Shown here: positions 22,135-62,476 of the stretch, in pieces
Numbering within the stretch: the stretch's first letter is position 1
How the letters are laid out: each line of letters starts with the position of its first letter
Assembly (NCBI GenBank): GCA_020725665.1
Contig: DYEO01000002.1
Location: 6,451-70,450, forward strand
From: Dethiobacter sp.
GTDB taxonomy: Bacteria > Bacillota > Dethiobacteria > DTU022 > UBA8154
Direction: 5' to 3'
Length of the DNA stretch: 64,000 nucleotides
Translations under genes and position numbers: made by a program
The notes under the pieces: model-generated
The model's database searches: none
What the model saw: the letters and a program-made list of their open reading frames with translations, nothing else
Told to the model about the DNA's origin: nothing

Positions 22135-23937
22135 TCAAACTTTAACATTTGACGGACTGCGCCGGATCACCATACCCTTCTTTTGCGCCGTTGCCAGGAG
22201 TTCTCCCCCCTGCATGACAATCTCGCCGCTTTTCACCGTAAATACGGGCCAGCCGGTCAGTTCCTTCCCCTCGTAGAGGGAGAAGTCGGAGCGGGAGGCC
22301 AGTTGCAGCGGGTCAACCTTACGGCGCTCCTGCAGATCCACCACGACAATATCGGCATTACTCCCCGGCAAGAGGGAACCTTTGGCAGGATAGAAGCCAA
22401 ATATTTCCGCCGGACGTAGGGATGTAACCTCTGCCAGCCGGGTAAGGTCAATGCGCCCCCTGTTTACACCTTCACTTAACAGGGAGGGTAGATGGGTAGC
22501 CAGGGCCGGATAACCGGGCAGGGCTTCCGCCATACCTTTATCCACCATTTTTTCCGCAAGCGTAAGCGTGGCGTTATCCGTCCCCACTGTATCTATGATT
22601 CCTTCACGCAGGCCCTGCCAGAGAGCTTCGCGATCTTGCGGGGACCTGAAGGGTGGGGTCATCTTGCCCCGCGCACCGAGCAGCCAGTCCGTATCGATGG
22701 TCAGGTACGGCGAGGTAGTCTCCGCATAGAGGGAATAAGCGCCGCCACCTCTTTCGCGGTATCTGCGTATTACTTCTATGCTCTCCCGGGCGGACAGGTG
22801 TACCAGATAAATGGTAACCCCGCAACTCCGGGCCAGCAGCACAGCCCTTTTTACCGCCTCTTCCTCCGCCAGGCTGGGCCGTGTCAGGGACCAGGCCTGC
22901 AGGTCGTTATCCTGCTCCACCTGCCGGCGGTGTTGGGCGGTTGAACGCTCCACGATGTGGGAATTTTCAGCGTGGATGGCAATACTCACATCCCGGCAGC
23001 CTTTAACCTTTTCAAAAACATCCAGGATTTTATCATCATGCATGTGGGGGATTAGCCCCGGGATGCCGCACATAAATATTTTAAAAGAAGTTATTTGCAA
23101 ATGTTTGATGTAGGCGGGAATTTCCTCCACCTGCCGCGGTGTGGTGATGATCAGATGGGGGAATATGTCGATATAGCTGTGCCGTTCCACCATCTCCACA
23201 AAAGAAGGCAGGTAGTCAAAATATGATTCTTCACTGTAGAGCATACAACCGGCCGCCGTAACGCCGCCCAGCAGGGCTGAGGCTGTTTCCTTCTCCATCT
23301 CCTCCCGCATATCGCCGAATATTCCCAGATGGATATGCGGATCCACAACGCCGGGCAGCACATACAGGCCCGTTGCATCGATCATCTTCTTTCCCCGGGC
23401 CTGGCCGCTAACACTGATGGCGGCGATTTTACGACCGCTGACCTCCAGGTCTCCCCGGAACACACCGAGGCGGGGAATCACCAGGTAACCATTTTTGATT
23501 ACCAGATCCGCTTCCCCCGGAAGCACCCCACCGGCGCCCTTTAAGTAGGCGATCTCTTTTTTTATCTGCTCCAGCTCACCCTGGAACGATGCAAGGGAAG
23601 CAGCACTAGCCGGGATCGGGGGTTTCGCTCCCGTTTCCCCGGGCAAAGGGGAAGGCAGCAGCGATAGAGGAGACAGTGGCGGGGGCGGCAAAGCAGCCCC
23701 GGTAAAAGCGTCTCCGGCAACAGGCAGGCTTTCCTGCGCCGTCCCCCCGGCCCCGCTCCCTCCCTTAACTGACACACTGCCACTCCTGACAGGGTTTTTA
23801 ATAATACGTATCTCCAGCTGCGCCGCCCGCTCCAGCGCCACGTCCGTAACAACATCGTCAGCGCCGATCATGAATTCCTTGTTCCCCAGGCGGGCAGCCA
23901 TCTCCAGATCCAGGGCGGTAATAATTCTTTTGGGCAA
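22135..23937 (-). CDS. Cyclic amidohydrolase (dihydropyrimidinase / hydantoinase / allantoinase family) with an N-terminal targeting module and a Pro/Ser/Ala-rich linker
   Basis: VDPHIHL, KIFMCG, IHAEN, YLVHLS metal-dependent amidohydrolase motifs. TTG start (MPKRIITALDLEM) 16 nt after the BMC-T stop, with a GGGGGGAG RBS. The N-terminal 40 aa are homologous to the N-terminus of the class-V PLP enzyme at 24911-26263. Confidence 0.75.
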   Translation of the reverse strand: MPKRIITALDLEMAARLGNKEFMIGADDVVTDVALERAAQLEIRIIKNPVRSGSVSVKGGSGAGGTAQESLPVAGDAFTGAALPPPPLSPLSLLPSPLPGETGAKPPIPASAASLASFQGELEQIKKEIAYLKGAGGVLPGEADLVIKNGYLVIPRLGVFRGDLEVSGRKIAAISVSGQARGKKMIDATGLYVLPGVVDPHIHLGIFGDMREEMEKETASALLGGVTAAGCMLYSEESYFDYLPSFVEMVERHSYIDIFPHLIITTPRQVEEIPAYIKHLQITSFKIFMCGIPGLIPHMHDDKILDVFEKVKGCRDVSIAIHAENSHIVERSTAQHRRQVEQDNDLQAWSLTRPSLAEEEAVKRAVLLARSCGVTIYLVHLSARESIEVIRRYRERGGGAYSLYAETTSPYLTIDTDWLLGARGKMTPPFRSPQDREALWQGLREGIIDTVGTDNATLTLAEKMVDKGMAEALPGYPALATHLPSLLSEGVNRGRIDLTRLAEVTSLRPAEIFGFYPAKGSLLPGSNADIVVVDLQERRKVDPLQLASRSDFSLYEGKELTGWPVFTVKSGEIVMQGGELLATAQKKGMVIRRSPSNVKV

Positions 23938-23953
23938 ACTGCTCCCCCCTTCG

Positions 23954-24601
23954 CTATTTGGCCTGCAGGCTTGCGATAGCGTTTTGGGCAGCATCCATCG
24001 CCGTTTTAACCAGGGATTCATCCCCGGAGAGATAGAGGCGGCCGTAGCGTCCCACCGGATCGAAGTGTACTATTCTTATATCCGCATTTTTCTCCGCCTC
24101 ATTGACCGCATGGGTGATATAGACAGCCGGTTCCACCTCCATGATCAGGAGGGACTCGGAGGGGACAATCATGGAACCCTGGCGGAAACGGTTGATCAAC
24201 TGGGCCTGGTAGGGACTGATGTTGTTAATAATCTTGGTTGATACAATTTGCGGCATTATTTTATCAGTTTGATGCAGGTTGTAGCGGCTCAGGATAGCGT
24301 GGCCCGCTTCCAGGACACCGTCCACGGACTCGGAATGAAGCTCGATCATCCCGAATTCCCGCTCCACATCCTGGAAGCCGGAGCGGGCCTCCCCGCTTTT
24401 GAGGGCAATATCGAGCATGCCGTATACTTCGGAGCCGGGCGCGATCTCCAGCCAGAGCTGGGCCATACCCGCCATGGGGACATCTCCCCGGGAGACGGTC
24501 CCCAGGAACGCGGCATACTGGGGCTGCATACGGTCAATAAACACGTACGTTCTCAGAACAATATTTTCACCCACCTGAATTCCTCCTTCAGCAGCGGGCA
24601 A
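23954..24601 (-). CDS. BMC-T shell protein (tandem BMC-domain protein, EutL/PduB-like)
   Basis: 215 aa; DIALKSGE and DAAQNAIASL segments typical of permuted tandem BMC domains; lies inside the shell-gene cluster. Confidence 0.65.
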   Translation of the reverse strand: MPAAEGGIQVGENIVLRTYVFIDRMQPQYAAFLGTVSRGDVPMAGMAQLWLEIAPGSEVYGMLDIALKSGEARSGFQDVEREFGMIELHSESVDGVLEAGHAILSRYNLHQTDKIMPQIVSTKIINNISPYQAQLINRFRQGSMIVPSESLLIMEVEPAVYITHAVNEAEKNADIRIVHFDPVGRYGRLYLSGDESLVKTAMDAAQNAIASLQAK

Positions 24602-24896
24602 AATCTATTTCATCGATAATCGCCACAATGGCAGCATCCACGGGAAGCGCCTTCTCCTGCGGCAATGTTGTGCCCACAGGTTCGCCGCTGCTTAAAACAA
24701 GCTGGGCGGGACTTCCCGTGGTTACACAAACAAGGCTGCCCAGCCCCGAACCGAAAATATCCACCGCCACGAAGGGTTCACCCCGTACCTTCTTTTTCTC
24801 CGGGGAGTACTCCTGCACGATGGCCAGCTTGTAGCCGGAAAGTCTCCTGTCCTTGATCGTGGAGACCACTGCACCGGTTACTTTGGCTATGATCAT
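24588..24896 (-). CDS. BMC-P vertex protein (EutN/PduN/CcmL family)
   Basis: MIIAKVTGAVVSTIKDRRLSGYKLAIV...VAVDIFGSG, the EutN/CcmL fold signature. Confidence 0.8.
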   Translation of the reverse strand: MIIAKVTGAVVSTIKDRRLSGYKLAIVQEYSPEKKKVRGEPFVAVDIFGSGLGSLVCVTTGSPAQLVLSSGEPVGTTLPQEKALPVDAAIVAIIDEIDFARC

Positions 24897-24910: not shown

Positions 24911-26263
24911 TCATTTTCGCAAAAGCCCGGCCAGGCAATCCATGACATGTTTGAGATTTTCCTTTGTGGTATAAAAGTGGGGTGCAATACGAATGGCATT
25001 GCCCCGGGCCGAGGCGATGATGTTATGTTTTTTCAGGTCAATCTCCACCTGGTGCGAGTCATCCACCCTGATCGCCGTGGTGGAACCTTTCTTTTTAACA
25101 TCCAGGGGACTGAGCAGCTCCAGGCCCCGCTCCTGCGCCAGCCCGATCGTATACTCAGAAAGCATGTTGATCCGTTTTTCAATGTTTTTTGGCCCGACCT
25201 CGTTGATTATTTCCATGCCGGCACGGGCGGCAAAGGCGGTAAGGACCGGCGGCGTCCCCGTGTCAAAGCGGCGGCTGTCGGAAGCATAATCGAGGTAACG
25301 CACCTGGAAGGAGAAGGGATTCTCCTGGCCGAACCAGCCGGTTACGGCCGGTTTGAGACAGGAAATAAGATCTTTTTTTACATAGATAAAGGCAATTCCC
25401 GGAATCCCCAGAAGATATTTCAGATTACCGGAGGATAGTATATCAATATCCATCTGCTTGACGTCGAGATCAACCGTACCGAGCGACTGGTAAGCGTCAA
25501 CGTAAAAGAGAGAGCCCTTTTCGTGAATGATCCGGGCAATGGCTCCCAGGTCCTGTTTAAAACCGTTCTGATAATAGACATGCGTCACGGAAGTGAGCAC
25601 AGTCTCCTCGTCCAAAAGACGGCGGTAGTCCTCCAGCAAAATCTCACCGTTGCGCACGGGGACGTAATCCACCTTGTAACCATATTTCTGACTGGCCAGC
25701 CAGACGTGGCCCACCGTGGGGAATTCCGCCTCTGTGGTCAGGATACGCCGTCTGGCCCCCAGCGGATCCAGGGCACTGGCAATGGATGCAGTAGCCTCCG
25801 ACACGGAGGTGGAGAGGGCGATCTCGTCGGGGCTGGCGTTAATCAACCGGGCAAATTCATGCTTGGCCTTAATTGTTTCCTCGATCCAGTACTCCCAGTC
25901 CATACCGGCTGTCAGCCAGCTATCAAGGTAATCTTCAATAGCCCGGCGCACTCTTTTGGCCTGGGGGGCCTGAGAGCAGTTGGCCACGTGAATGGTATGG
26001 GCCAGCAGGGGGAACTCTCCCTGCCAGCGGCGGGCAAAATCCTCGGAAAGCACATCCGCCCCTGTATTTGCGGGAGAACTTTGCTGTGTCGCAGCCGGAG
26101 TCCGATCCTGCGGCGATACTGCTGCCCTGACCAGGCTGATACCCAGGCGCCGCGCATTTTCTTCCGCTATCGCCGTTACAATGTCGTTTTCCCCGTATTC
26201 CATAACCGTTTTGCCTGCTTCTTTGCATAGCTCTATATCCCAAGCGGTAATGATCTTCTTCAT
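24911..26263 (-). CDS. Class-V PLP-dependent enzyme (aminotransferase/C-S-lyase family) with an N-terminal BMC-targeting-like module
   Basis: PLP-lysine region SSGNLKYLLGIPGIAF. N-terminal MKKIITAWDIELCKEAGK...VTAIAEENARRLGISL followed by an S/P/A/T/Q linker. RBS AAAGGGGGGAG. Confidence 0.7.
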   Translation of the reverse strand: MKKIITAWDIELCKEAGKTVMEYGENDIVTAIAEENARRLGISLVRAAVSPQDRTPAATQQSSPANTGADVLSEDFARRWQGEFPLLAHTIHVANCSQAPQAKRVRRAIEDYLDSWLTAGMDWEYWIEETIKAKHEFARLINASPDEIALSTSVSEATASIASALDPLGARRRILTTEAEFPTVGHVWLASQKYGYKVDYVPVRNGEILLEDYRRLLDEETVLTSVTHVYYQNGFKQDLGAIARIIHEKGSLFYVDAYQSLGTVDLDVKQMDIDILSSGNLKYLLGIPGIAFIYVKKDLISCLKPAVTGWFGQENPFSFQVRYLDYASDSRRFDTGTPPVLTAFAARAGMEIINEVGPKNIEKRINMLSEYTIGLAQERGLELLSPLDVKKKGSTTAIRVDDSHQVEIDLKKHNIIASARGNAIRIAPHFYTTKENLKHVMDCLAGLLRK

Positions 26264-26347
26264 TTAAGCGATCTCCCCCCTTTCATGCCGCAAAACACCC
26301 GTCACTCATGCCATTTGGCAGCAAACATCGCAGCAACGCGGTGCGGT

Positions 26348-26635
26348 TTATTCTCCCTTACTATTAAGGTTTTTAAGAATAAATGCCTCTATTTCGGCAT
26401 GGGGCCGGGGAATAACATGCACGGACAATACTTCTCCCACACGCTTGGCAGCAGAGGCTCCTGCATCGACAGCAGCCTTCACCGCCCCCACATCTCCTTC
26501 CACGATGACTGTGATATATCCTGCACCAATGTTCTCCTTCGCCAGCAACTGCACATTGGCCGCCTTAACCATGGCATCAGCCGCTTCGATAGCCGCAACC
26601 AGGCCCTTCGTTTCGATCAAACCAAGAGACTTCAT
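26348..26635 (-). CDS. BMC-H hexameric shell protein (PduA/EutM family)
   Basis: [28 protein letters not shown], the canonical BMC domain. Confidence 0.9.
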
Positions 26636-26715: not shown

Positions 26716-26799
26716 AAAGAGGAAATTCAGCAGCAAATCCCGAATAATTATTTTAAAGCGTTAATTTAATCAGATTTGGGGAGAGGAGGTTACCTGAAG

Positions 26800-27513
26800 A
26801 TGAACGCCGGCAGCAAACATGGGGGCAATTTTAGCGGATCTGCTTACCATTATTCACCCTGGTTTCGCCGAGGTGTAGCCTGCTGGGAACCTGTTTTCGA
26901 AAAATGCCCGCAAAAAAGTGTGCGTAAAAACAGCATTATTTTCAGCCAGGAAGAGGTAAACGAATCCGTCTACTTCATCCACAAGGGGCGGGTAAGGTTA
27001 TCATCGTTTGATAAAAACGGGAATGAGAAGTCCATCGTCATCGTCTCCGAGGGAAACATCATCGGTGAGGTGTCCGCCAAGGAAAGGATCCCGGCCATCG
27101 TAACGGCTACTGCCGTTACCGATTGTACACTTTTCTACATGCCCAGCGATCTCTTTTCCCAGAAGGTCTTAGCCAGCCCCGTTTTAAGTGAACGGCTTAT
27201 CCTGGAACTGATGTACCTGGTCCGTATTCTAACAGGTCATATACGGGATATATCCTTCATGGACGCAAGTGAGCGGGTGGTTACCTACCTGTTCAAGCTC
27301 TCCAACAATTACGGCTTGGATACACCCCAAGGACGCAAGATCACTATCCGTTTTACCCACCAGGAAATGGCCGATCTTACGGGCACCTGCCGCGTCACCG
27401 TCTCCAAAATCATGAAATCCCTCGATAAATCAAAAGTCATCAAAAAAATCGACGGCCACCTCTATATCCTCGACGAAGCTTACTTTCAAAAAATTATGGA
27501 AGAGGTCTCCTGA
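26800..27513 (+). CDS. Crp/Fnr-family transcriptional regulator
   Basis: cNMP-binding beta-roll (FIHKGRVRLSS...GEVS) plus a C-terminal HTH (QEMADLTGTCRVTVSKIMKSL). Start moved to MNAGSKHG with a GAGGAGG RBS. Confidence 0.8.
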   Translation: MNAGSKHGGNFSGSAYHYSPWFRRGVACWEPVFEKCPQKSVRKNSIIFSQEEVNESVYFIHKGRVRLSSFDKNGNEKSIVIVSEGNIIGEVSAKERIPAIVTATAVTDCTLFYMPSDLFSQKVLASPVLSERLILELMYLVRILTGHIRDISFMDASERVVTYLFKLSNNYGLDTPQGRKITIRFTHQEMADLTGTCRVTVSKIMKSLDKSKVIKKIDGHLYILDEAYFQKIMEEVS

Positions 27514-28329: not shown

Positions 28330-29544
28330 TCATCTTCCCCTGAGCAATAATAATTTATTTTTATTTAAAAGATCAGCGGTGATCTCCAGTAGCCTGTCAA
28401 TGTCCTCCCTGCTGTTGTAGCAGTGGGGCGAAACCCTGATACCGCCCACACCGGAAGTATAGCGCAGGGAAACAAAGACTCCTTCCTGCGTCAGGCGGGC
28501 ATTTAATTTTCTCTCCTCTTCCAGGCCTCCCGGCAGGGTAAAAGAAGTAATCCCTGAACGATGCCGGGGCTCCCGGGGGCTGACTAGCCTGATTCCCAGT
28601 TCCTCCAGGCCGGTAGCCAGCACATCGCCCAGTTCCCTAACCTTCTTTTCCACGGCTTTTATGCCCGTTTCTTCCAGTTTTTTCAGGCTGTGACAGAGGG
28701 TCAGGGCGCCAAGGTAATTTCCCGTCCCCCCCGTTTCAAACTTCCGGGCCGTCTCTGCCAGCTCCAGTCGGTCAAAGGGCGTGCGCAGGGGTGATTCCAG
28801 ATATTCTCCCCATCCTCCCTCCGGCTCAAGGGCGTTGAAATAGCTGTAGAAATCCGGCTTTAGGAGGGGCAGAAGATTTCTGTTAACATAAAGAAAGCCC
28901 ATGCCAAAGGGATTGCGCAGCCACTTGTGCCCCCCGGCACAGTAAACGTCCACCTCCGTTTCCCCCAAATCCACAGCCAGGGCGCCCGCTTCCTGGATTC
29001 CATCCACAATCAACAGGCAACCGTGCTCCCGGGCCAGCCGGCTGAATTCCTGCAGCTCCACCCGGAAGCCGTTTATCTCCTGCACGGCGCTGATTACGAT
29101 CGCTTTGGTGTTTTCGTCGATGCGGGCGGCAAAATCGGAAACATCCACCCTGCCGTCCTTTGTGGCCACGGCGCGAATCTCGAAGGGAATTTTCTCACGC
29201 CTCGCCTGCCAGCAGAGCGTTGTGGCAAAAAACTCCAGGTCGCAGATGAGGATATTGTCTTCCTTTTCCAGGGGCAGGCTGCCGGCAATGAGGCCGAGTC
29301 CGTGGCTGGTGCTTTCCACCAGGGCAATCTCCTCCGGCGTCACGTTCAACAGACGGGCCGCCTCTGCCCTGGCCCGGGCAAAATAGCTGTAAAGATGTAC
29401 GGTAAAATCCGTGGGAGGGATATGAATATTTTGCAGGGAAGCGATCACTTGTTTCGCTTCTTCCGCAACTTCGGGATCGATTAAACCCATGCAGGCCGTG
29501 TCGAGATAGGTTATTTTGTTGGAGGAAAGATCTATGTTTTTCAC
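28330..29544 (-). CDS. Class-V aminotransferase / cysteine-desulfurase-like PLP enzyme (no targeting module)
   Basis: PLP-lysine motif YCAGGHKWLRNPFGMGFLYV; fold-type I class V. Confidence 0.7.
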   Translation of the reverse strand: MKNIDLSSNKITYLDTACMGLIDPEVAEEAKQVIASLQNIHIPPTDFTVHLYSYFARARAEAARLLNVTPEEIALVESTSHGLGLIAGSLPLEKEDNILICDLEFFATTLCWQARREKIPFEIRAVATKDGRVDVSDFAARIDENTKAIVISAVQEINGFRVELQEFSRLAREHGCLLIVDGIQEAGALAVDLGETEVDVYCAGGHKWLRNPFGMGFLYVNRNLLPLLKPDFYSYFNALEPEGGWGEYLESPLRTPFDRLELAETARKFETGGTGNYLGALTLCHSLKKLEETGIKAVEKKVRELGDVLATGLEELGIRLVSPREPRHRSGITSFTLPGGLEEERKLNARLTQEGVFVSLRYTSGVGGIRVSPHCYNSREDIDRLLEITADLLNKNKLLLLRGR

Positions 29545-32246: not shown

Positions 32247-33524
32247 ATGATGAGTACTTGTGTTTCATGTTGCCCCGGATTAGAAAATTATTTCTGGAAA
32301 AACCCGGGACAGGTCCTGTTTTATCTCGATGCGCCGCTCAAGGCTTATCTGCTGAACCTGGATAGAGGCATCGAGATTTTACAGGGGTGTTACTCTAAAG
32401 ATTTCGGCAGGCCGGCTGTTTTTGACCCGGTGGATATGCTCCGATCTTTAATTCTTATGGTGTCACTTAAAATTACCTGTGTTACCAAATGGGCTGATGA
32501 TCTCACCAAAAGTGATGTGCTGGCTATTTTATGTGGTTTCGAGCCGGGCAAGACTCCTTCCGCCTCCGCTTTTTACGATTTCTGGAACAGGTTGTGGCTG
32601 GAAGACAAAAGGCTGAGAAAAAAACGTAAACTAAGGATTAGGATAAAGAGTAAGCAACCGAAAAATGTGCAGAAAGGGCAGAAATTGCCCAACAGGCGCC
32701 CGGGGGGGATAGACTCGTCAGGTCTTTCCGTAAGGGAAGATTTTTCTCCACCAAACGTCCCGAGCGGCTGCTGCAGGAGCTGTTCACCAGGGTCTTTGTT
32801 CAAGGCTCCAGGGATAGAAATATTATCCCTGTTTCTATGATACTAACCGGTGACGTATTTCTGGGGCAGAAATCTGTATACGTTTTCCTGTGTTAATGGT
32901 GAAGATGAACTGCCGGTATTTCTTCGTTTTGGACAAGGCTCCAGGCATGATAGTGTGGTTTTTGCGTTCAGTGTGGTGGAAGCGTGGTCCCTTTTTTCTA
33001 AGGCCGGGCTTAATGTCAGCGTTTTCATCGGTGATTCGGCGCACGATGCTAACCCCTTATATGCACTGCTGGATGATTACGGCTCCAAGCCGGTTATTGC
33101 GCTGAATAAAAAGCCTTCATCTCTTATCCCTTTAAATGAGCAGGGTATTCCTCTTTGTCCTAAAGGGTTTTTAATGCAGTACTGGGGATTCGGTGAGAAA
33201 AAAAGCCGGTTCAAATGGCGCTGCCCTAAAATCGTCGGTAAAAAAAGGAACAGGAACAAAATTGATTGTACAACGCCCTGCACAAACTCCAGCTACGGCT
33301 TTACTTGTTATACCAACCCGGAGTGGGACCGGCGTATCTTTACGGATATCCCCAGGGGGTCGGCTGTCTGGAAACAGCTATACAGTGCATCTGGATGCCT
33401 GGATTGCACAGGAACTGGAGCTTTCAAAGCTCGACAAAAAGGCACTGCTGCTGCGCGTTCTGTGAGTTGGCACGGCCGCTGCCTGTGCGTAGGCGCAGCG
33501 GCTCTTGATTTTGGACACTTGTAG
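32247..33524 (+). mobile_element. Frameshifted IS5/IS1182-family transposase remnant (DUF772 N-terminal domain plus DDE domain)
   Basis: ORF1 GRPAVFDPVDMLRSLILM matches the DUF772 N-terminus; ORF2 (32850-33524, a different frame) carries the DDE region (GDSAHDANPLYALL...). Confidence 0.6.
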
Positions 33525-37197: not shown

Positions 37198-37643
37198 CAG
37201 CTCTCCCCCCTTTGCACATGCACGCGCAGAAACCTGCCCGGCTCGAAAAGGAGGTTGTGCCAGACTTTTTCCCCGATACGCAGGAGGGTATCCACGTCTT
37301 CCGCAACCACCTGGGCCAGGGGCAAGGCCGGGACCGGCTCGGTAGGTTGTTCATAATTAATCGCCAGGTATTGAAAAACATGTTCCAGGTTGATACGGCC
37401 GATGGGCTGTTTATCCATAGGTTCCCAGTAGAATTTGGCCTCTGCCGCCTGGGGCAGGAGCAGACGTACGGGAAAATACATCTGACGCCCGGCTACCACG
37501 GCATGGCTTTGGATGCTGGACATGGGCAGGCTTTTTAAAAACACTTCTTTTAGTTCAGCCCACTGCTCTTCCAGCAGGTAAGCCTGTAATGACATCTGCA
37601 ATTCCGGCCAGTGCAGGTGAATCTTATTTTTCTTCATTTTCAC
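37197..37643 (-). CDS. Hypothetical protein
   Basis: 148-aa ORF; 20-nt overlap with the upstream gene; no recognisable motif. Confidence 0.45.
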   Translation of the reverse strand: MKMKKNKIHLHWPELQMSLQAYLLEEQWAELKEVFLKSLPMSSIQSHAVVAGRQMYFPVRLLLPQAAEAKFYWEPMDKQPIGRINLEHVFQYLAINYEQPTEPVPALPLAQVVAEDVDTLLRIGEKVWHNLLFEPGRFLRVHVQRGES

Positions 37644-38196: not shown

Positions 38197-40104
38197 TTAA
38201 ATGACGGGGACCCCTGCTGCCAGCAGTTGGCGGGCCACATCAGCAAGGCCCAGCCGGGAGAGAGTCTTCCCTGTGGGGATGCCTGTTGCCGGGTCCCAGC
38301 CCCGTGCCGCGTAGTACTCGTCCAGCATGGCCTCGAGTTCCACAACACTGCCCTTGGATGGATGTTCTCCCGGCAGGGGCTCTTTAAGAAAGCGCTCCGG
38401 CAAGGTATCATCACTGCGCCGGATCCCCTGCCGCACGATAAAAGCCCTCTCCAGGTTCAGTACCCGCTCACAGGCTTGCTGCACACCCTCGCCCGTAAAA
38501 GCGCCGCCGGTCAGCGCCGCAAGCAGCGCCGCCGCTTCCCCAAAGTCGATGATCTCCATATTCACGATTGTATTCTTGCAGGCGCTCAGGCAGTCGGAGA
38601 GAGCGCTCCATTCCTCGTAGTGTTTGACCAGCCGGCCTTTGCCCCGGTACTCCAGGCGAAAGGCCGCTTCCCTGGCCCCGTAACGCCTTATGCCCTCATC
38701 GGGATCATTGGAAAATTCGAAGGAGGGTTCGGAACGGAGGTGGTCGCCCCCCCGGCTGGCCAGGGCAAAGCCCAGGGCGTAACCCTTCAGCCCCCGCGGG
38801 TCCGCCTGGAAGACCTCCAGGCCTTTAATGTGCATGGCCAGTTTTTCCGTGCCTCGCCCGATTGTACGGGAGGCATGGCGCACCCCCCTGGCCAGGAGGT
38901 CGCCAATACCCTCGCGCCAGGCAATCTTGCGCAGCAGTTCGCGTATTGCCCTTTGATCCCCCCAGCGCGGCTCCAGTCCGTCCACTTCATCACGGCTGAG
39001 CAACCCTTTTTCGAAACACTCCATGACAAAGGAGATGCACTCGGAGGCAGTGATCACGTCCATTCCCAGCCGGTTGCAGTCGTCAACCCCCTGTAGGGCG
39101 AAGGCCAGGTCGTTGCAGCCCACGCGGGAGGAAAACCCGGCCAGGCCTTCAAACTCCGGGCCTTCCGAGGCGAGGCCGGCGTACGGGCCGGAAGTGATAC
39201 GGAAAAATCGGCTGCAGGGGATCGTGCAGGCAAAACAAGACTTGGACTTAACCTTGAGGGTCTTTGCCAGTTGTTCGCCGCTTACGGCATCAGCACCGGC
39301 GAAATCCCCGGAGAGGAAGTGGCGGGTGGCCAGGCAGCCGAATTTGTTCAGCGCATTGATCAACTTGGTTGTCCCCATCATGGCCCGGGCCTGGTATTCG
39401 TCATGCTTGTAGATCTTTGCATCAATTTGCGCGAGCAGCTTTTGGAAGCGCTCCCGGTCATGAATATTGATGCAGCCCTTGCCGCGCACGGCCACGGCCT
39501 TGAGGTTTTTCGCCCCCATCACCGTACCCATGCCCGTGCGTGCCGCGGTACGGACCAGGTTGGCAAAGACACCGGCAAAGGTCACGCCACGTTCCGCGGC
39601 GGGGCCGATGCAGGCCACCTGCAGGCGGTTGTCCGCCAGCTCTTCCCGCAGGGCTTTGTCCGTCTGCCAGACGTCCCGGCCCCAGAGATGTTCGGCCGGA
39701 CGGATCTCCACCCGGCCATCGGTAATGAGCAGGTATACGGGCTTCTCGCTGCGTCCACTGATGATGAGCTGGTCGTAGCCGGCAAACTTGAGCTCCGGCC
39801 CGAAGAAACCACCGGCATTGGCATCGCCGAGAATCCCCGTGTGGGGTGACTTGGCGGAAACATTAAAGCGCGCCCCCCCGGGAAAAAGCGTGCCGGCCAG
39901 GGGCCCGGCGCTGAAAAGGAGAGGATTACGGGGTGAAAGGGGATCCGTATCCCGGTCCAAAAGACGGAAAAGCCTGCATATATTCAAACCCCGACCTCCC
40001 AGGTAGCTTTCCACCTCGGGACCCAGTTCCTCTTGCTCCACACGGCCCTGCGTGAGGTCAACATTTAACACCTTACCGGCATAACCGCCGTGCCATTTTA
40101 CCAT
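38197..40104 (-). CDS. aor: Tungsten-containing aldehyde:ferredoxin oxidoreductase (AOR family)
   Basis: N-terminal AOR domain (KVLNVDLTQG...GGRGLN) and 635-aa length typical of AOR. Confidence 0.85.
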   Translation of the reverse strand: MVKWHGGYAGKVLNVDLTQGRVEQEELGPEVESYLGGRGLNICRLFRLLDRDTDPLSPRNPLLFSAGPLAGTLFPGGARFNVSAKSPHTGILGDANAGGFFGPELKFAGYDQLIISGRSEKPVYLLITDGRVEIRPAEHLWGRDVWQTDKALREELADNRLQVACIGPAAERGVTFAGVFANLVRTAARTGMGTVMGAKNLKAVAVRGKGCINIHDRERFQKLLAQIDAKIYKHDEYQARAMMGTTKLINALNKFGCLATRHFLSGDFAGADAVSGEQLAKTLKVKSKSCFACTIPCSRFFRITSGPYAGLASEGPEFEGLAGFSSRVGCNDLAFALQGVDDCNRLGMDVITASECISFVMECFEKGLLSRDEVDGLEPRWGDQRAIRELLRKIAWREGIGDLLARGVRHASRTIGRGTEKLAMHIKGLEVFQADPRGLKGYALGFALASRGGDHLRSEPSFEFSNDPDEGIRRYGAREAAFRLEYRGKGRLVKHYEEWSALSDCLSACKNTIVNMEIIDFGEAAALLAALTGGAFTGEGVQQACERVLNLERAFIVRQGIRRSDDTLPERFLKEPLPGEHPSKGSVVELEAMLDEYYAARGWDPATGIPTGKTLSRLGLADVARQLLAAGVPVI

Positions 40105-56200: not shown

Positions 56201-59200
56201 GTGCCCGGTATCTGTAAATGTACAAAGATAAAGGAAGAGGGTGATATTGTGGTTGACAACCTGAATAAGTTAAAACAGATCCTTAGGGAAATGTTCCAGT
56301 TTGACCAGGCGGATCTGGATTTTGGCATTTATCGAATCATGAACCAAAAACGTGCAGAGGTCGAAAGGTTTCTGGATGATGAACTGCTGCCCCAGGTAAA
56401 AGATGCTTTCAGTGTTTTCTCTTCTGCCGATAAAGCACTGCTTACACAAGAGATGGAAAAATTAAAGAAAACCCTGGAAGATGCCGGTGTAATAGCGGAA
56501 ACGGCACCTAAATACCAGGAAATGCAGGCGCGGATGGAAGCGGCCACCGACATAGAAGCCCTGGAGCAGGATGTCTTTTCTCATCTTGTGACTTTTTTCA
56601 GCCGTTACTACGATAACGGTGATTTTCTGTCCCGTCGCCGCTACAAGGCCGGTGTTTATGCCCTCCCTTACGCGGGAGAGGAAGTAAAACTGCACTGGGC
56701 CAACGCCGATCAGTACTACATTAAAACAACCGAGTTTTTCCGGGATTACACGTTTAGCTTACCCTCGGGGAAAAAAGTTCATTTCAAAATTATCGAAGCA
56801 AGCACGGAACAAAACAACAACAAGGAACAGAACGGCAAAGAAAGACGCTTTTTTCTGGATGGGGAATCACCACTTATGATAGAAGATAATGAGCTGTACA
56901 TTCGCTTCCAGTACAACATCCATGAAGAAAAACAGGATGAATTGAATGCACAAACAATCCAGTATTTACTGGCTAATGCCGCCAGCGAGCAACTGCAAGA
57001 TTATGTAGAGCTTTTCACCCTCTCGCCAACAGAATCCAATCCGAACCGCAGTCTCCTGGAAAAGCACCTGCGCGATTACACCGCCCGCAATACCTTTGAC
57101 TATTTCATTCATAAGGATCTGGGTGGCTTTCTGCGCCGCGAACTGGATTTTTACCTGAAAAACGAGGTTATGCATATTGATGACCTGGACACGGAAAACG
57201 AACTTAAAGTGGAGCAATACATCTCCAAAATCAAAGTGATAAAGCGTATCGCATACAAAATAATCGCCTTCCTGGAACAACTGGAAAACTTTCAAAAAAT
57301 GCTTTGGCTGAAGAAAAAGTTTGTGATAGAGACAAACTACTGCCTTACCCTGGATAAAGTACCGGAAGACCTATATCCCAGGATACTCGCCAATGCAGCG
57401 CAGATCCAGGCATGGAAATACCTCTTTGCCATTGAAGAAATTGATAGGTCCACCGTTAACCCGGGCTACAGTGAACCCTTAACCGTGGAATTCCTCAAGG
57501 CAAACCCTTACCTGGTTTTGGATACCGCTTTCTTTGACGAAGACTTCAAGGAAGCGCTCCTGGCCTCCTTCGAAGACCTGGAAGATTCCATCGACGGTCT
57601 GCTGGTACATAGTGAAAACTTCCAGGCCCTGAACCTGCTGCAGGAAAGATACAGGGAGCAAATTAAGTGTATTTACATCGACCCGCCATACAATTCCGGG
57701 TTCAGTGAAATTTTATATAAAAACACTTTTAAGCATTCTTCCTGGCTGTCTCTTATTGAGAATCGTTTACAGGCTAGCCATATTTTAATTACAGACGAAA
57801 GCATTATAATTATCGCAATAGATGAAAATGAGCAGGAGCGGCTTGGTCTTCTTTTAGATGGTCTTTACTCAAATTTCTTAAAAACCTGTATAACGGTAAT
57901 TCATAACCCTGGAGGAATACAGGGAAACAATTTTAAATATACCCATGAATATGCTTATTTTATTTACCCAAATAAAAGCGGAGTTATTGCTCTTCAGGAT
58001 AGAAGAGACGACACAGATGTGCGGCCGTTAAGAGATGTGTCAAAAGGAGATCATCTTCGTATTTCTGCGGCAAATTGCTTTTATCCAATCTACATCAAAG
58101 ATAATAAAATTGTCGGGTTTGGTGATGTATGTAATGACTCTTTTCATCCACCATCTGCGAACGTTTACCTAAATGACGGTATTATTGAGGTTTACCCTAT
58201 AGACGCTCAAGGAAATGAACGGAAGTGGGTGTTTGCTAGAAATAGTGTGGAAAGTATACAAGATGAATTAGAGGTTTATTTCAATAATAAAAGACAAATA
58301 TATGATATCATTAGAACTAAATCAATGTTTAATTACAAAACTGTTTGGATGGATAAGAAGTACAATGCCAATTCTTATGGGACAAAACTTCTAAACAATA
58401 TAATTGGGCAATCAATATTTGATTTTCCTAAATCTATTTATAACGTAATGGAATGCGTTAGCGCATCAACTAAAAATGCAGATACAGCAATCATTCTCGA
58501 CTTCTTCGCCGGCTCCGGCACCACAGCCCACGCAGTTATCAACCTCAACCGTGAAGATGGGGGGCGGCGAAAATACATCCTGGTGGAAATGGGTGAATAC
58601 TTCGATAGCGTAATGAAGCCACGTATCCAAAAGGTGATCTACTCCCGGGACTGGCGGGAGGGTAAGCCTCTCTCCCGGGAGGGTAGCAGCCATATGTTCA
58701 AGTACCTGCGCCTGGAATCATATGAAGACACCCTTTCCAACCTGGAGGTCATAAGAACAGGCACACAGCAACAAGTTTTGGATGAGCATCCACAATTCCG
58801 GGAGGAGTACATGCTCTCCTACATGCTTGACATTGAAAGCAGGGGCAGCGCTTCCCTGCTAAACCTGGACCAATTTGAGAATCCCTTCAGCTACAAGCTG
58901 CAAATTCATAAAAAAGGGGAAACGCGCCCCGTAGCCGTTGACCTTATTGAAACCTTTAACTACCTTTTGGGGCTTCGCGTACGACAGACGCAAATGATTC
59001 ACGGGTTCAAGGTGGTCCGTGGTGATCTTCCCAACGGTGAAAAGGTTCTTATTATCTGGCGTAACCTCAAGGAAAAATCCAGGGAGGACTTGACCCGCTT
59101 CTTTAATGAAGAGGGTTACAGCACCCCGGGCTCTGAATTTGACCGTATCTACGTAAACGGTGACCATAACCTGCAGAACCTGAAAAAAAGTGAAGACCGC

Positions 59201-59263
59201 TGGAAAGTACTGCTTATCGAACAGGAATTCAAACGCCTCATGTTTGACCTGCGCGACGTATAG
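56201..59263 (+). CDS. mod: Type III restriction-modification Mod-like N6-adenine DNA methyltransferase (beta-class) with a roughly 400-aa N-terminal extension
   Basis: Motif IV DPPYN (IYIDPPYNSGF) precedes motif I FFAGSGTT by about 290 aa (the target-recognition domain), the beta-class order. A GTG at 56249 may be the true start. Confidence 0.7.
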   Translation: MPGICKCTKIKEEGDIVVDNLNKLKQILREMFQFDQADLDFGIYRIMNQKRAEVERFLDDELLPQVKDAFSVFSSADKALLTQEMEKLKKTLEDAGVIAETAPKYQEMQARMEAATDIEALEQDVFSHLVTFFSRYYDNGDFLSRRRYKAGVYALPYAGEEVKLHWANADQYYIKTTEFFRDYTFSLPSGKKVHFKIIEASTEQNNNKEQNGKERRFFLDGESPLMIEDNELYIRFQYNIHEEKQDELNAQTIQYLLANAASEQLQDYVELFTLSPTESNPNRSLLEKHLRDYTARNTFDYFIHKDLGGFLRRELDFYLKNEVMHIDDLDTENELKVEQYISKIKVIKRIAYKIIAFLEQLENFQKMLWLKKKFVIETNYCLTLDKVPEDLYPRILANAAQIQAWKYLFAIEEIDRSTVNPGYSEPLTVEFLKANPYLVLDTAFFDEDFKEALLASFEDLEDSIDGLLVHSENFQALNLLQERYREQIKCIYIDPPYNSGFSEILYKNTFKHSSWLSLIENRLQASHILITDESIIIIAIDENEQERLGLLLDGLYSNFLKTCITVIHNPGGIQGNNFKYTHEYAYFIYPNKSGVIALQDRRDDTDVRPLRDVSKGDHLRISAANCFYPIYIKDNKIVGFGDVCNDSFHPPSANVYLNDGIIEVYPIDAQGNERKWVFARNSVESIQDELEVYFNNKRQIYDIIRTKSMFNYKTVWMDKKYNANSYGTKLLNNIIGQSIFDFPKSIYNVMECVSASTKNADTAIILDFFAGSGTTAHAVINLNREDGGRRKYILVEMGEYFDSVMKPRIQKVIYSRDWREGKPLSREGSSHMFKYLRLESYEDTLSNLEVIRTGTQQQVLDEHPQFREEYMLSYMLDIESRGSASLLNLDQFENPFSYKLQIHKKGETRPVAVDLIETFNYLLGLRVRQTQMIHGFKVVRGDLPNGEKVLIIWRNLKEKSREDLTRFFNEEGYSTPGSEFDRIYVNGDHNLQNLKKSEDRWKVLLIEQEFKRLMFDLRDV

Positions 59264-59275
59264 GAGGTGGAGAGC

Positions 59276-62200
59276 TTGCCTACTGCCAGGAGTCAAACAA
59301 GACAGCGCGCCGCGGGTCCAGCCCTCCGTTTCGACCAGCGCCTGGTGCTGAACCAATACATGCTCTTACGCATTTTTGGAGCGGGTACATTCGAGGAACT
59401 GGCTGCAGAGATGAAAGATCCGGCCTTCGAGGGTTGGGACGAAAACAATATCTCCTGGTTCTGTCACTCCCTGTTAAACGGGCGCTATCTGGAGAGATCG
59501 GAACTGGACGAGGATACCCTTTTACAGTATGACCGCAACATAGCGCGGCATACCCGGGTGATCCAGGGGCGCCGCCCGGAAAAGATACACTGGAAATACT
59601 TTCAGTATTTTGCCCTCTTGTTCACGGAGATTTACCTGGATCGTTACTTCCGGGACCCAGATGGCCTTTTGGAAGGCCTGAATAATCACGTGGAGCTGTT
59701 CAACCGGGATAAGGATGACGCAGATCGGGTTAACCTGTACAGGCGGGAAGACCTGTCCAAGCTGGCCTATTGGAAAGCTACCGGCTCCGGCAAGACCCTG
59801 ATCATGCACGTAAACATTCTACAATACCTGGATTACCTGGCACTCCACCAGCGTAACGAAGAACTGAACCGCATTATTCTCCTCACACCCAACGAGGGGC
59901 TTTCCCGCCAGCACCTGGAGGAATTCCACCTTTCGGGGCTGGAGGCCAGGTATTTTGACAAGGACGGCACCATACCCCTGGAAAAGCTGTGGGGAAGGGT
60001 CAAGCAGGGGACGGTGGAAATCATTGATATCCATAAGCTGAAGGAGGAAGCCGGACAGAAAACCGTGGCCATAGAGGCCTTTGAAGGAAACAACCTGGTC
60101 CTGGTGGATGAAGGACACCGGGGCTCCAGCGGTATTGACTGGAAATCGCGCCGTGACCGCCTCTGTCAAAATGGTTTTTCCTTTGAATACTCGGCGACCT
60201 TTGGCCAGGCCATGAAAGCCTCTGGGAAAAAGGAACTAATCCAGGAGTATGCCCGCTGTATCCTTATCGATTACTCTTATAAGTTTTTTTACCGGGACGG
60301 TTTCGGCAAGAACTACCATATTTTAAACCTTCCCGACGACAGTGACGCTGATAAGAAGAATCTTTATCTGACAGCCTGCCTGCTCTCTTTTTACCAGCAA
60401 CAAAAGATATTCCTGGAGCAGCAGCGAGCCCTTGTACCCTTCAACCTGGAAAAACCTCTATGGGTATTTGTGGGCAGTAAGGTAACTGCCGTGCGCACGG
60501 AAAACAGACGCAAGGTTTCCGATGTGGTGGATATTCTGCTTTTTCTCTCCGATTTTGTCCGGGATGACGGTAGGAGCATTGCCGCTCTTGACCTGCTGCT
60601 CAGCGGCCGGCCGGGTTTGCTGAACAGAAAGAACGAGGAACTGTTTGCCAACCAGTTTACCTACCTGCACAGAATAAGATTGAGGGGACGGGAGCTTTTC
60701 CAGGATATCCTGGCCACCCTTTTCAATAACAATGTTGCCGGCGCCCTTCTGCACGTAGAGAATCTCAAGGGGAGCGAAGGCGAGATCGGTTTGCGGGTTG
60801 GTGACAATGACTATTTTGGCGTCATCAATGTGGGTGACGAGCGCAACTTACTCAAACTCTGTGAAGAAAATGGACTTTACGTCTCGGAAAAGGACTTTTC
60901 CCACTCCCTGTTCGCCCTGCTGGGGGACCGCCAGTCTCCCATAAATGTGCTTATCGGCTCCAAGAAGTTCAGTGAGGGCTGGAACAGTTGGAGAGTTAGC
61001 ACCATGGGGTTGATGAATATAGGCCGCAAGGAAGGTTCGGAGATTATCCAGCTTTTTGGCCGGGGTGTGCGCCTCAAGGGCTACAACCTGAGCCTGAAGC
61101 GCAGCAGCGCGTTAAAAGACATCGAAGACCGGGTGCCGGGGGAACTGCCGTTGCTGGAAACTCTCAATGTCTTCGGTGTGCGTGCAGATTATATGGCCCA
61201 GTTTCAGGAGTACCTGGCAGAAGAAGGCCTGCCTGCCGACCAGGGGACAACAGAAATGATCCTGCCGGTACTGAAAAACCTGGGGAAAAAAAAATTGAAG
61301 GTAATCAAGCTCCAGGAGGGGGTTAATTTCAAAAAGAACGGGCCCAGGCCCACGCTGAGCACACCGGACAGCTATCTGCAGAAAAATCCCGTTGTGGTGA
61401 ATTGGTACCCCCGTATTGAGTCCATACGCAGCGGGGCCACCGGTGGGTCACCCTTCCAGGAACTGCAGGAAGGAAAGTTGGGGGCCGGACATATTGCCTT
61501 TTTGGATCTGGATGCCCTCTATTTTGAACTGCAGCAGTTAAAACTGGAGCAGGGTTGGCATAACCTCAACCTGGAGCGTGAGACAATTTACCGTTTATTA
61601 CGCGATTCAAGCTGGTACCGCCTTTATATTCCTCCCCACGAGCTGGAGTTCGGCAGTTTTGATAGAGTGAGAAGGTGGCAGGAGATAGCGGGCGTTCTTT
61701 TAAAGAAATACTGCCGGCGCTTCTACCTTGCACAGAAAGCTGCTTACGAGGCGGACAAGTTGGAATACACTACCGTTGAAGAATACGAGCAAAAACTGAC
61801 CTCCGCCGGCAAGGAAGGCAATATTCCTCCTGCATACCACTTTTATGTGCCGGAGACGGAGACGGCATTTATTGAACAGCTTATGCAGTTAAAGGAGGCT
61901 ATTGAGAAGGGTGATTTAAGGGATATCAATTTTTCTAGCATGATGGACGTAATTTTTATGGAGCAGCATCTCTATCAACCCCTGCTCGCGTTGAACCATT
62001 CCGAAATCAAAGTAACCCCGGTCCAGCTGAACAGGGGGGAAAAGGACTTCGTGCTGGATTTAAGAAAATACGTGGAGCGCCATGCGGATCGTTTTACCGG
62101 GAAAGAGCTTTACCTGCTGCGCAACCAGAGCCGGGGGAGGGGTATCGGCTTTTTCGAACTGGGCAACTTTTATCCCGATTTTATCCTCTGGCTGGTGGAT

Positions 62201-62476
62201 AACAGCAAGCAGTACATCAACTTCATCGACCCCAAGGGACTGCGCAACCTGAATGCCATGGATGACCCCAAAATCAACTTTTACAAAAGTATCAAGGATA
62301 TAGACAGCCTCAAAGACCCTGACGTAATCCTTAACTCCTTTATTATCTCCATTACCCCTTTCCACCGCGTCAACTGGCGGGGATCTATTACCAAGGACGA
62401 CTTCGAAGCATGCAACGTCTTTTTCCAGGAAGACAGGGATGAGTATATCGGGAAGATGTTTGGGAGGATTAAGTGA
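59276..62476 (+). CDS. res: Type III restriction enzyme Res-like subunit (SF2 helicase plus C-terminal PD-(D/E)xK nuclease)
   Basis: Walker A TGSGKT, DEGH box (LVLVDEGHRG), C-terminal YPDF...FIDPK nuclease motif. TTG start 13 nt after the mod stop, with an AGGAGG RBS. Confidence 0.7.
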   Translation: MPTARSQTRQRAAGPALRFDQRLVLNQYMLLRIFGAGTFEELAAEMKDPAFEGWDENNISWFCHSLLNGRYLERSELDEDTLLQYDRNIARHTRVIQGRRPEKIHWKYFQYFALLFTEIYLDRYFRDPDGLLEGLNNHVELFNRDKDDADRVNLYRREDLSKLAYWKATGSGKTLIMHVNILQYLDYLALHQRNEELNRIILLTPNEGLSRQHLEEFHLSGLEARYFDKDGTIPLEKLWGRVKQGTVEIIDIHKLKEEAGQKTVAIEAFEGNNLVLVDEGHRGSSGIDWKSRRDRLCQNGFSFEYSATFGQAMKASGKKELIQEYARCILIDYSYKFFYRDGFGKNYHILNLPDDSDADKKNLYLTACLLSFYQQQKIFLEQQRALVPFNLEKPLWVFVGSKVTAVRTENRRKVSDVVDILLFLSDFVRDDGRSIAALDLLLSGRPGLLNRKNEELFANQFTYLHRIRLRGRELFQDILATLFNNNVAGALLHVENLKGSEGEIGLRVGDNDYFGVINVGDERNLLKLCEENGLYVSEKDFSHSLFALLGDRQSPINVLIGSKKFSEGWNSWRVSTMGLMNIGRKEGSEIIQLFGRGVRLKGYNLSLKRSSALKDIEDRVPGELPLLETLNVFGVRADYMAQFQEYLAEEGLPADQGTTEMILPVLKNLGKKKLKVIKLQEGVNFKKNGPRPTLSTPDSYLQKNPVVVNWYPRIESIRSGATGGSPFQELQEGKLGAGHIAFLDLDALYFELQQLKLEQGWHNLNLERETIYRLLRDSSWYRLYIPPHELEFGSFDRVRRWQEIAGVLLKKYCRRFYLAQKAAYEADKLEYTTVEEYEQKLTSAGKEGNIPPAYHFYVPETETAFIEQLMQLKEAIEKGDLRDINFSSMMDVIFMEQHLYQPLLALNHSEIKVTPVQLNRGEKDFVLDLRKYVERHADRFTGKELYLLRNQSRGRGIGFFELGNFYPDFILWLVDNSKQYINFIDPKGLRNLNAMDDPKINFYKSIKDIDSLKDPDVILNSFIISITPFHRVNWRGSITKDDFEACNVFFQEDRDEYIGKMFGRIK

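Follow-up and report, generated by a model that had tools for sequence, protein, structure and literature searches.

An EutQ-Like N-Terminal Module Shared by Two Cargo Enzymes of a Compact Microcompartment Operon: A Candidate Shell-Docking Domain

A five-gene operon on the minus strand of Dethiobacter sp. contig DYEO01000002.1 encodes three shell proteins of a bacterial microcompartment (BMC) and two enzymes, in the order BMC-H, class-V pyridoxal phosphate (PLP) enzyme, BMC-P, BMC-T, and amidohydrolase. Within a 64-kb stretch of this contig, hereafter the window, we found that both enzymes open with versions of one homologous module, ~47 residues long, that resembles the N-terminus of EutQ by descent and precedes a disordered linker. 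In our view, this module is likely a shell-docking domain of the EutQ H1/H2 family, small and folding independently, that a disordered tether joins to each of the two cargo enzymes. Because it is related to the part of EutQ that associates with the shell, its role is most likely to tether and package the enzymes. What is understood of how enzymes are sorted into microcompartments concerns mainly short amphipathic peptides, and many catalogued compartment types have been reported with "no detectable encapsulation peptide."

Two Enzymes of One Operon Carry the Same N-Terminal Module

The first copy of the module, an EutQ-N-like mini-domain, comprises residues 1–48 of the amidohydrolase (MPKRIITALDLEMAARLGNKEFMIGADDVVTDVALERAAQLEIRIIKN; positions 23794–23937, minus strand), and the second comprises residues 1–47 of the PLP enzyme (MKKIITAWDIELCKEAGKTVMEYGENDIVTAIAEENARRLGISLVRA; positions 26123–26263, minus strand); they score 64.2 and 63.7 bits, respectively, against a hidden Markov model (HMM) of the module. 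The initial annotation, made from the sequence alone, had recognized the homology of the two N-termini and assigned them a length of 40 residues. The homology was confirmed, and the length had to be corrected to about 47 residues. BLASTP aligned the two N-termini without gaps, with 18 identities over 48 positions (E = 1e-8). The PLP enzyme module also scored 54.3 bits against an HMM built solely from the modules of amidohydrolase orthologs of other genomes, thus containing no sequence of the window, compared with 11.9 bits for the top of 4000 composition-matched shuffles. When all six frames of the 64 kb were scanned with the module HMM, exactly two copies were returned, with the runner-up at 5 bits, and the module is therefore confined, as had been proposed, to genes of the shell operon within the window. 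The scan found no module in the paralogous class-V PLP enzyme (28330–29544, minus strand; Aminotran_5 3.1e-46 over residues 13–385), as also stated in the initial annotation; encoded outside the five-gene operon, this paralog serves as an internal negative control.

The amidohydrolase gene (22135–23937, minus strand) begins with a TTG codon at 23937, giving a protein that starts MPKRIITALD. This start agrees with that of an NCBI-annotated protein of 600 residues (P0001) from a Bacillota metagenome-assembled genome, with 100% identity and coverage. The PLP enzyme gene (24911–26263, minus strand) begins with an ATG at 26263. In both proteins the module is followed by a linker with a high content of P, S, A, G, T, and Q, which upholds a further point of the initial annotation: The proportion is 63% in the Pro/Gly/Ala/Ser-rich, disordered linker of the amidohydrolase (residues 49–143; 23509–23793, minus strand) and 68% in that of the PLP enzyme (about residues 48–75, AVSPQDRTPAATQQSSPANTGADVLSE; 26042–26122, minus strand), compared with 36% in the catalytic domain. 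The catalytic domain of the amidohydrolase (residues 144–600 plus the stop codon; 22135–23508, minus strand) matches Pfam Amidohydro_1 (4.7e-18) and is modeled by AlphaFold2 with a predicted local distance difference test (pLDDT) score above 90. That of the PLP enzyme (24911–26041, minus strand) has the class-V aminotransferase fold (Pfam Aminotran_5 1.7e-39, KYNU_C 5e-7) and begins near FARRWQGEFPLL, as judged by comparison with module-less paralogs.

A recent duplication of the module within the locus was considered and rejected, as the two copies of the window are 38% identical to each other and 30–47% identical to the copies of other genomes. The octamer GGGGGGAG, which the initial annotation had described as an unusual shared ribosome-binding site, is indeed present upstream of both genes (23942–23949 and 26273–26280) but is not unusual: It occurs six times in the window, compared with 5.8 expected, and precedes an unrelated gene as well (37203–37210). 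We therefore discarded it as evidence.

The Module Is Related to the N-Terminus of EutQ

The module profile matched residues 1–46 of Escherichia coli EutQ (hhalign 94.8%, E = 5e-8), and the window-independent HMM scored residues 1–51 of the same protein at 32.5 bits, compared with at most 11.9 bits for shuffles. The PLP enzyme module matched positions 1–48 of the NCBIfam EutQ model NF012001 (E = 0.005). Residues 1–46 of EutT of E. coli K-12 also matched the profile (hhalign 89.9%, E = 1.7e-6; eutT at L001:20503–21306, minus strand); if this holds, the classical Eut system itself has an enzyme with a directly fused module. The two proteins of the window are not EutQ orthologs (NF012001/PF06249), since they run on into Amidohydro_1 or Aminotran_5, and it is the module alone that is common to them. 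Neither the EutQ helices H3/H4 nor the C-terminal cupin had a match in the window proteins, where the EutQ model matched positions 1–48 only, and the six-frame scan with the module HMM found no separate EutQ-like gene in the window.

To survey the family, a word-indexed search with the short module gave one candidate and then eight short fragments, and an exhaustive profile search over 1.84 billion representative proteins was used instead. At a threshold of E <= 1e-3 it returned 1578 matches, 106 of them at E <= 1e-10. Among the best 146 module proteins, 47 matched the NCBIfam EutQ model, 33 matched the C-terminal part of TIGR02536 (positions ~152–207; best E = 3e-14), and one weakly matched the C-terminus of PduM (positions 106–152; E = 6e-6). 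Small module proteins of ~100 residues match the EutQ model up to position 96, that is, over the whole EutQ N-terminal region. The module is conserved in dozens of orthologs, with T7, D10, G18, T31, and A34 nearly invariant. Across the family it is joined to six or more unrelated domains, or else it is found in small EutQ-N-like proteins. The fusion partners include Amidohydro_1, Aminotran_5, an EutQ-type cupin, a DUF3830/cyclophilin-like domain, and an HpcH_HpaI aldolase; a flavoprotein fusion carries the module at its C-terminus. One high-scoring match, a short chain dehydrogenase-like protein of 772 residues (P0132, E = 5e-21), was rejected as a false positive caused by nine partial "ELAARGG"-like repeats, and the summed scores in the list of 1578 matches therefore need checking per domain.

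A further group of small proteins (P0129–P0139, 190–255 residues; P0145, P0171, and P0175) has either two to three tandem modules and a C-terminal tail resembling EutQ H3/H4, or, in a TIGR02536/PduM-like layout, an N-terminal helix and two modules. These proteins look like multivalent scaffolds between shell and cargo.

The Module Is Predicted to Fold as a Mini-Domain

The module was modeled by AlphaFold2 from an alignment of 39 sequences. On its own it forms a compact beta-alpha-beta-beta-alpha-beta mini-domain (mean pLDDT 89.9), in which two short helices (residues 8–16 and 32–40 of the amidohydrolase copy) pack on a four-stranded sheet (strands 5–6, 21–24, 29–30, and 44–47). The two amphipathic helices suggested in the initial annotation are thus replaced by a folded domain in this model. 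In the full-length model of the amidohydrolase, the module (residues 1–48, pLDDT 83–94) is separated from the catalytic domain (residues 143–596, pLDDT > 90) by a disordered linker (residues 51–111, pLDDT < 50) and a helix (ASLASFQGELEQIKKEIAYLKG; residues 112–134; 23536–23604, minus strand) of lower confidence (pLDDT 58–67). The module is accordingly predicted to be a tethered folded mini-domain rather than a long amphipathic peptide. No Pfam model covered it in a scan of both copies, and no relative was found in the PDB; as far as these comparisons reach, it does not correspond to a known catalytic or oligomerization domain of either enzyme family, a correspondence that, according to the initial annotation, would have refuted its proposal.

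The helix at residues 112–134 was considered as a hidden classical encapsulation peptide, and we do not claim it as such: Its hydrophobic moment is unremarkable, being reached by 1180 of 5000 shuffles, and it is kept only in the closest orthologs (P0002–P0005).

Module Genes Lie Mostly in Shell Loci, and the Module Is Exchanged between Orthologs

Sorting the 120 closest amidohydrolase homologs by their N-termini gave four classes. For those with the module, the three loci examined (L002, L003, and L004) are all shell loci with BMC-H and BMC-P, and two also with BMC-T. A second class has a helix like that of a classical encapsulation peptide (DIYSKYLESLKG...) followed by a second helix (L005), and a third has duplicated PF[IV]PDF / FVP[EG]W motifs (L006); L005 and L006 are syntenic shell loci in which the PLP enzyme retains the module. 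The fourth class is free of any extension, and around the ortholog examined (L007) shell genes are absent over a distance of 10 kb. The PF[IV]PDF ... FVP[EG]W extension occurs in about 30 of the 120 homologs and in P0063 (L006:10001–11461), in two copies and without a predicted helix, at the place taken in other orthologs by the module or by the helix resembling an encapsulation peptide; possibly, it represents a separate type of short linear motif for shell binding.

For a broader view, we surveyed 25 loci with the module motif, taking one genome per species by the single pattern [ND][TVI]VLTDLARE, a sample that consists mostly of Chloroflexi. Shell open reading frames (ORFs) are present in 23 of the 25, mostly within a few hundred nucleotides of the module gene; the wide occurrence on non-BMC proteins that would have spoken against a packaging role was hence not seen in this sample. 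The fusions with DUF3830 (L036) and with the flavoprotein (L037) are likewise found in shell loci, and a stand-alone module protein of 101 residues is encoded beside EutABC and BMC-T (L008). Even on the contigs of less than 1 kb that encode P0131 and P0149, a shell ORF adjoins the module gene, with BMC-T at a distance of 4 nt (L010) and BMC-P at 40 nt (L038).

In most of the related loci, no more than a few hundred nucleotides separate the module gene from a BMC-T gene. The module gene very often follows directly downstream of it, with gaps of tens of nucleotides (L011–L035, L008, L017, L023, L036, and the window, where BMC-T is encoded at 23954–24601). This adjacency hints at the BMC-T trimer as the docking partner.

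A Putative Shell-Docking Role and Its Alternatives

The function that we propose for the module is transferred from EutQ. Deletion of EutQ residues 9–41, which comprise H1/H2, separates the shell from the cargo, and the truncated EutQ remains with the cargo (Yang et al., Sci Adv 2025, PMC12487888). By nuclear magnetic resonance (NMR) and isothermal titration calorimetry (ITC), binding of the EutC and EutE encapsulation peptides was mapped to H3/H4 (residues 62–99), and H1/H2 had no chemical-shift changes in NMR on peptide binding (PMC12487888). Residues 1–99 of EutQ are sufficient to bring superfolder GFP to Eut microcompartments, and EutQ interacts with EutM and EutL by microscale thermophoresis (Yang et al. 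2025, PMC12487888); pull-down of EutM needs the EutQ N-terminus (Held et al. 2016, PMC4827028). A complex of EutL and TIGR02536 from Listeria has been predicted in a structure-prediction atlas (PMC13181095). Together with the adjacency of the genes, the EutQ–EutL interaction and this predicted complex suggest BMC-T as the partner of the module.

In the mechanism that we envisage, the five genes of the operon would be expressed together, and the module of each enzyme would dock on the shell's lumenal face during assembly, likely at the BMC-T trimer or at an interface of BMC-H and BMC-T. The flexible linker of 30–95 residues would then let the oligomeric catalytic domains hang inside. In this way the module would presumably suffice for encapsulation, and both enzymes could be co-packaged without a separate adaptor or classical amphipathic encapsulation peptides, the direct fusion standing in for the two-part arrangement of EutQ adaptor and encapsulation peptide. 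The proposal of the initial annotation, a non-catalytic encapsulation module, is thus supported by the homology to EutQ H1/H2, the modular fusions, the context of shell genes, and the exchanges between orthologs.

Several points weigh against a shell-docking role. All functional evidence is transferred from Salmonella EutQ, with ~20–30% identity over 46 residues. In that protein, H1/H2 are helices in the AlphaFold3 model and not a beta-alpha-beta fold, and its shell binding was assigned from the localization of deletion mutants and not from a mapped interface, with the flexible region mattering too (PMC12487888). Two of the surveyed loci (L020 and L022) are free of shell genes over 10 kb, and the survey itself, biased by a single peptide pattern and mostly Chloroflexi, puts only a handful of the 1578 representatives into their genomic context. 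At least one high-scoring match, P0132, was driven by repeats. The module could also equally mediate an association of cargo with cargo instead of a contact with the shell.

This last possibility, in which the module would drive condensation or scaffolding of the enzymes and nucleate an aggregate that is later enclosed by the shell, core first, deserves consideration, although we think it unlikely. The same module is present on both cargo enzymes, so that a homotypic contact would co-aggregate both; many members of the family have two to three tandem modules and a C-terminal helix pair (P0129–P0139), multivalent as scaffold proteins are; and Eut cargo makes a separate polar aggregate (PMC12487888). 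The behavior of Salmonella EutQ argues the other way, since the protein without H1/H2 keeps the cargo and loses the shell, and since its cargo binding maps to H3/H4 by NMR and ITC, without shifts in H1/H2 (PMC12487888). The commonest immediate neighbor of the module gene, moreover, is a BMC-T gene and not another cargo gene.

We give still less credence to a role of the module as a small domain for ligand binding or regulation that would sense a pathway metabolite, perhaps as a distant relative of a single CBS motif, although the order of elements in the CBS motif resembles the beta-alpha-beta-beta-alpha order of the module, and the first strand and helix weakly match the CBS protein MJ0100, with an E of 5e-4 at the level of the whole protein and of 0.07 at that of the domain. 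A ligand has also been suggested (Sutter et al. 2021, Supplementary Data 2) for the EutQ-like extension of MIC2, described there as "possibly interacting with a ligand." Pfam CBS (PF00571) nevertheless matched neither copy of the module up to E = 10 nor any of 146 members at E <= 1e-3, and the module showed neither a PF00571 match nor similarity to the CBS fold. A common ligand is hard to square with carrier enzymes that are chemically unrelated and have shell genes as their sole common denominator, and a long disordered tether is unusual for an allosteric domain. That the similarity is a functionless product of chance, composition, or a mis-called start is so improbable that we set it aside. 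The shortness of the module and the G-rich ribosome-binding site common to both genes could be read in this way, yet the pairwise E of 1e-8 and the 54 bits, compared with at most 12 for shuffles, refute such an origin. It is equally at odds with the conservation in dozens of orthologs, the 106 representative proteins that reach E <= 1e-10 in a database of 1.84 billion, the confident AlphaFold2 fold, and a start codon backed by the NCBI annotation.

Comparison with EutQ, Encapsulation Peptides, and BUF3

A shell-docking role would place the module closest to the N-terminal part of Salmonella and E. coli EutQ, which is homologous, lies likewise at the extreme N-terminus before a flexible linker, and is encoded among shell genes. 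Three features of this region, namely homology to EutQ 1–46, two helices followed by a flexible region, and a locus of shell genes, were found for the module of the window. In EutQ, however, the module is the head of an adaptor, in which H3/H4 come next and bind the amphipathic EutC and EutE peptides, with a cupin/acetate-kinase domain behind them, whereas in the window it is fused straight onto the cargo enzymes, and no match resembling H3/H4 was seen.

Classical encapsulation peptides, such as the N-terminal ~18 residues of PduP, PduD, EutC, and EutE, resemble the module in being terminal extensions with a flexible linker that are found only on shell-associated homologs, and they swap with the module in orthologous amidohydrolases. 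They differ in being a single amphipathic helix of 15–20 residues, whereas the 47 residues of the module are predicted to adopt a beta-alpha-beta-beta-alpha-beta fold; in Eut they bind EutQ H3/H4 and not H1/H2. TIGR02536, PduM, and the N-terminus of EutT contain the module; apart from EutT, it is C-terminal or repeated in them, and none of these proteins is a hydrolase or a PLP enzyme. CcmN, CsoS2, and residues 1–37 of PduB do the same tethering job, in the comparison drawn by Yang et al. (PMC12487888), without kinship in sequence or fold; they are separate proteins or an extension of a shell protein rather than an enzyme-fused domain.

The compartment type most similar to the locus of the window is BUF3 (Sutter et al. 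2021), in which a pfam00266 enzyme is extended at its N-terminus and has a proline-rich linker, as seen only in the members from shell loci. Module and linker of the PLP enzyme in the window amount to ~75 residues, compared with 70–80 residues for the BUF3 extension, and BMC-H, BMC-P, and a double-stacking BMC-T are shared. The second extended enzyme of BUF3 is a pfam13382 deamidase, whereas that of the window is a hydantoinase-like amidohydrolase (PF01979/PF07969). Among the 30 window ORFs scanned, which are not every ORF of the window, no aldehyde dehydrogenase (PF00171) was found, and BUF3 is likewise without one in its operon. The same 30 ORFs include no gene for pyruvate:ferredoxin oxidoreductase (PFOR; pfam01558/17147), a pfam02775 thiamine pyrophosphate (TPP) enzyme, a pfam13380 coenzyme A (CoA)-binding protein, or a CoA ligase. 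The sister loci L002 and L005 have this BUF3 enzyme set of PFOR, TPP enzyme, and CoA-binding protein/ligase. We regard the locus of the window as a reduced variant related to BUF3 and not as a typical member.

The idea of packaging was partly anticipated in that work: The N-terminal extensions of the BUF3 enzymes were already flagged as a possible targeting signal, and EutQ-like homology was noted for the extension of MIC1/MIC2 and for an SPU6 protein of ~130 residues (Sutter et al. 2021, Supplementary Data 2). That work neither connected the BUF3 extensions with EutQ nor gave a fold for them (Sutter et al. 2021).

Taking the family as a whole, the chances seem to us about even that it constitutes a widespread, unnamed class of folded shell-docking domains and a second general packaging system beside the amphipathic-helix encapsulation peptides. 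Its members would act as adaptor heads (EutQ and the small EutQ-N-like proteins), as multivalent repeats (TIGR02536-like), or as direct enzyme tags (EutT, the BUF3-like hydrolase and PLP enzyme, the HpcH aldolase, DUF3830, and the flavoprotein), and they may be specific for BMC-T. If so, EutQ, EutT, PduM, and the TIGR02536 proteins would be linked by one common element, and packaging would be explained in orphan compartments (BUF3-like, SPU6, MIC, and other types). For engineering, a portable tag of 47 residues would become available to load foreign enzymes into shells, as a second targeting tag orthogonal to the known peptides. The compact operon of the window, with five genes for a shell and two enzymes, is an attractive minimal test system.

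Genes of the Operon and Its Surroundings

The BMC-H gene (26348–26635, minus strand; Pfam BMC 9.9e-30), encoding the shell hexamer, is the first of the operon. The shell pentamer BMC-P (24588–24896, minus strand) belongs to the EutN/CcmL family (Pfam EutN_CcmL 5.8e-23). The tandem-domain BMC-T (23954–24601, minus strand) is CcmP/CsoS1D-like (NCBIfam CcmP 1.1e-67, below the equivalog cut-off; Pfam BMC 1.2e-6), and its gene ends 16 nt upstream of the start of the amidohydrolase. The latter is a cyclic amidohydrolase, dihydropyrimidinase/hydantoinase-like (NCBIfam D-hydantoinase/dihydropyrimidinase 3e-77, below the equivalog cut-off).

From this set of enzymes we infer a cyclic amide or a compound of the hydantoin type as the substrate of the pathway, which would feed a PLP-dependent step. 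A protein of 840 residues (P0027) is a natural fusion of PLP enzyme and amidohydrolase in one polypeptide, without the module, which suggests that the two cargo enzymes of the window act in consecutive steps.

A regulator of the Crp/Fnr family (26776–27513, plus strand; cNMP_binding and HTH_Crp_2) is encoded divergently from the shell operon, and a gene of this family also adjoins the shell operon in L002, L003, and L005. Upstream of the operon lie a racemase-like gene, the module-less PLP paralog, and a sodium:solute symporter. A tungsten-type aldehyde:ferredoxin oxidoreductase (AFOR; AFOR_N and AFOR_C) is encoded 12 kb from the shell operon (38197–40104, minus strand), and an AFOR with a ferredoxin is found directly upstream of a related shell locus (L006:267–2603); AFOR could provide the aldehyde-oxidizing step for a compartment without an aldehyde dehydrogenase.

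Two adjoining ORFs of 197 and 224 residues (32247–33524, plus strand) are flanked by the locus's two symporter genes, lie on the strand opposite to these and, judged from the look of their translations alone, resemble a frameshift-split transposase. If this is an insertion sequence, it separates the region of the shell operon from the Amdase-like and AFOR genes. Farther away, an N6/N4 DNA methylase of 1020 residues followed by a ResIII/SNF2-type helicase of 1069 residues (56201–62476, plus strand) looks like a restriction-modification or related defense module, unrelated to the findings on the operon.

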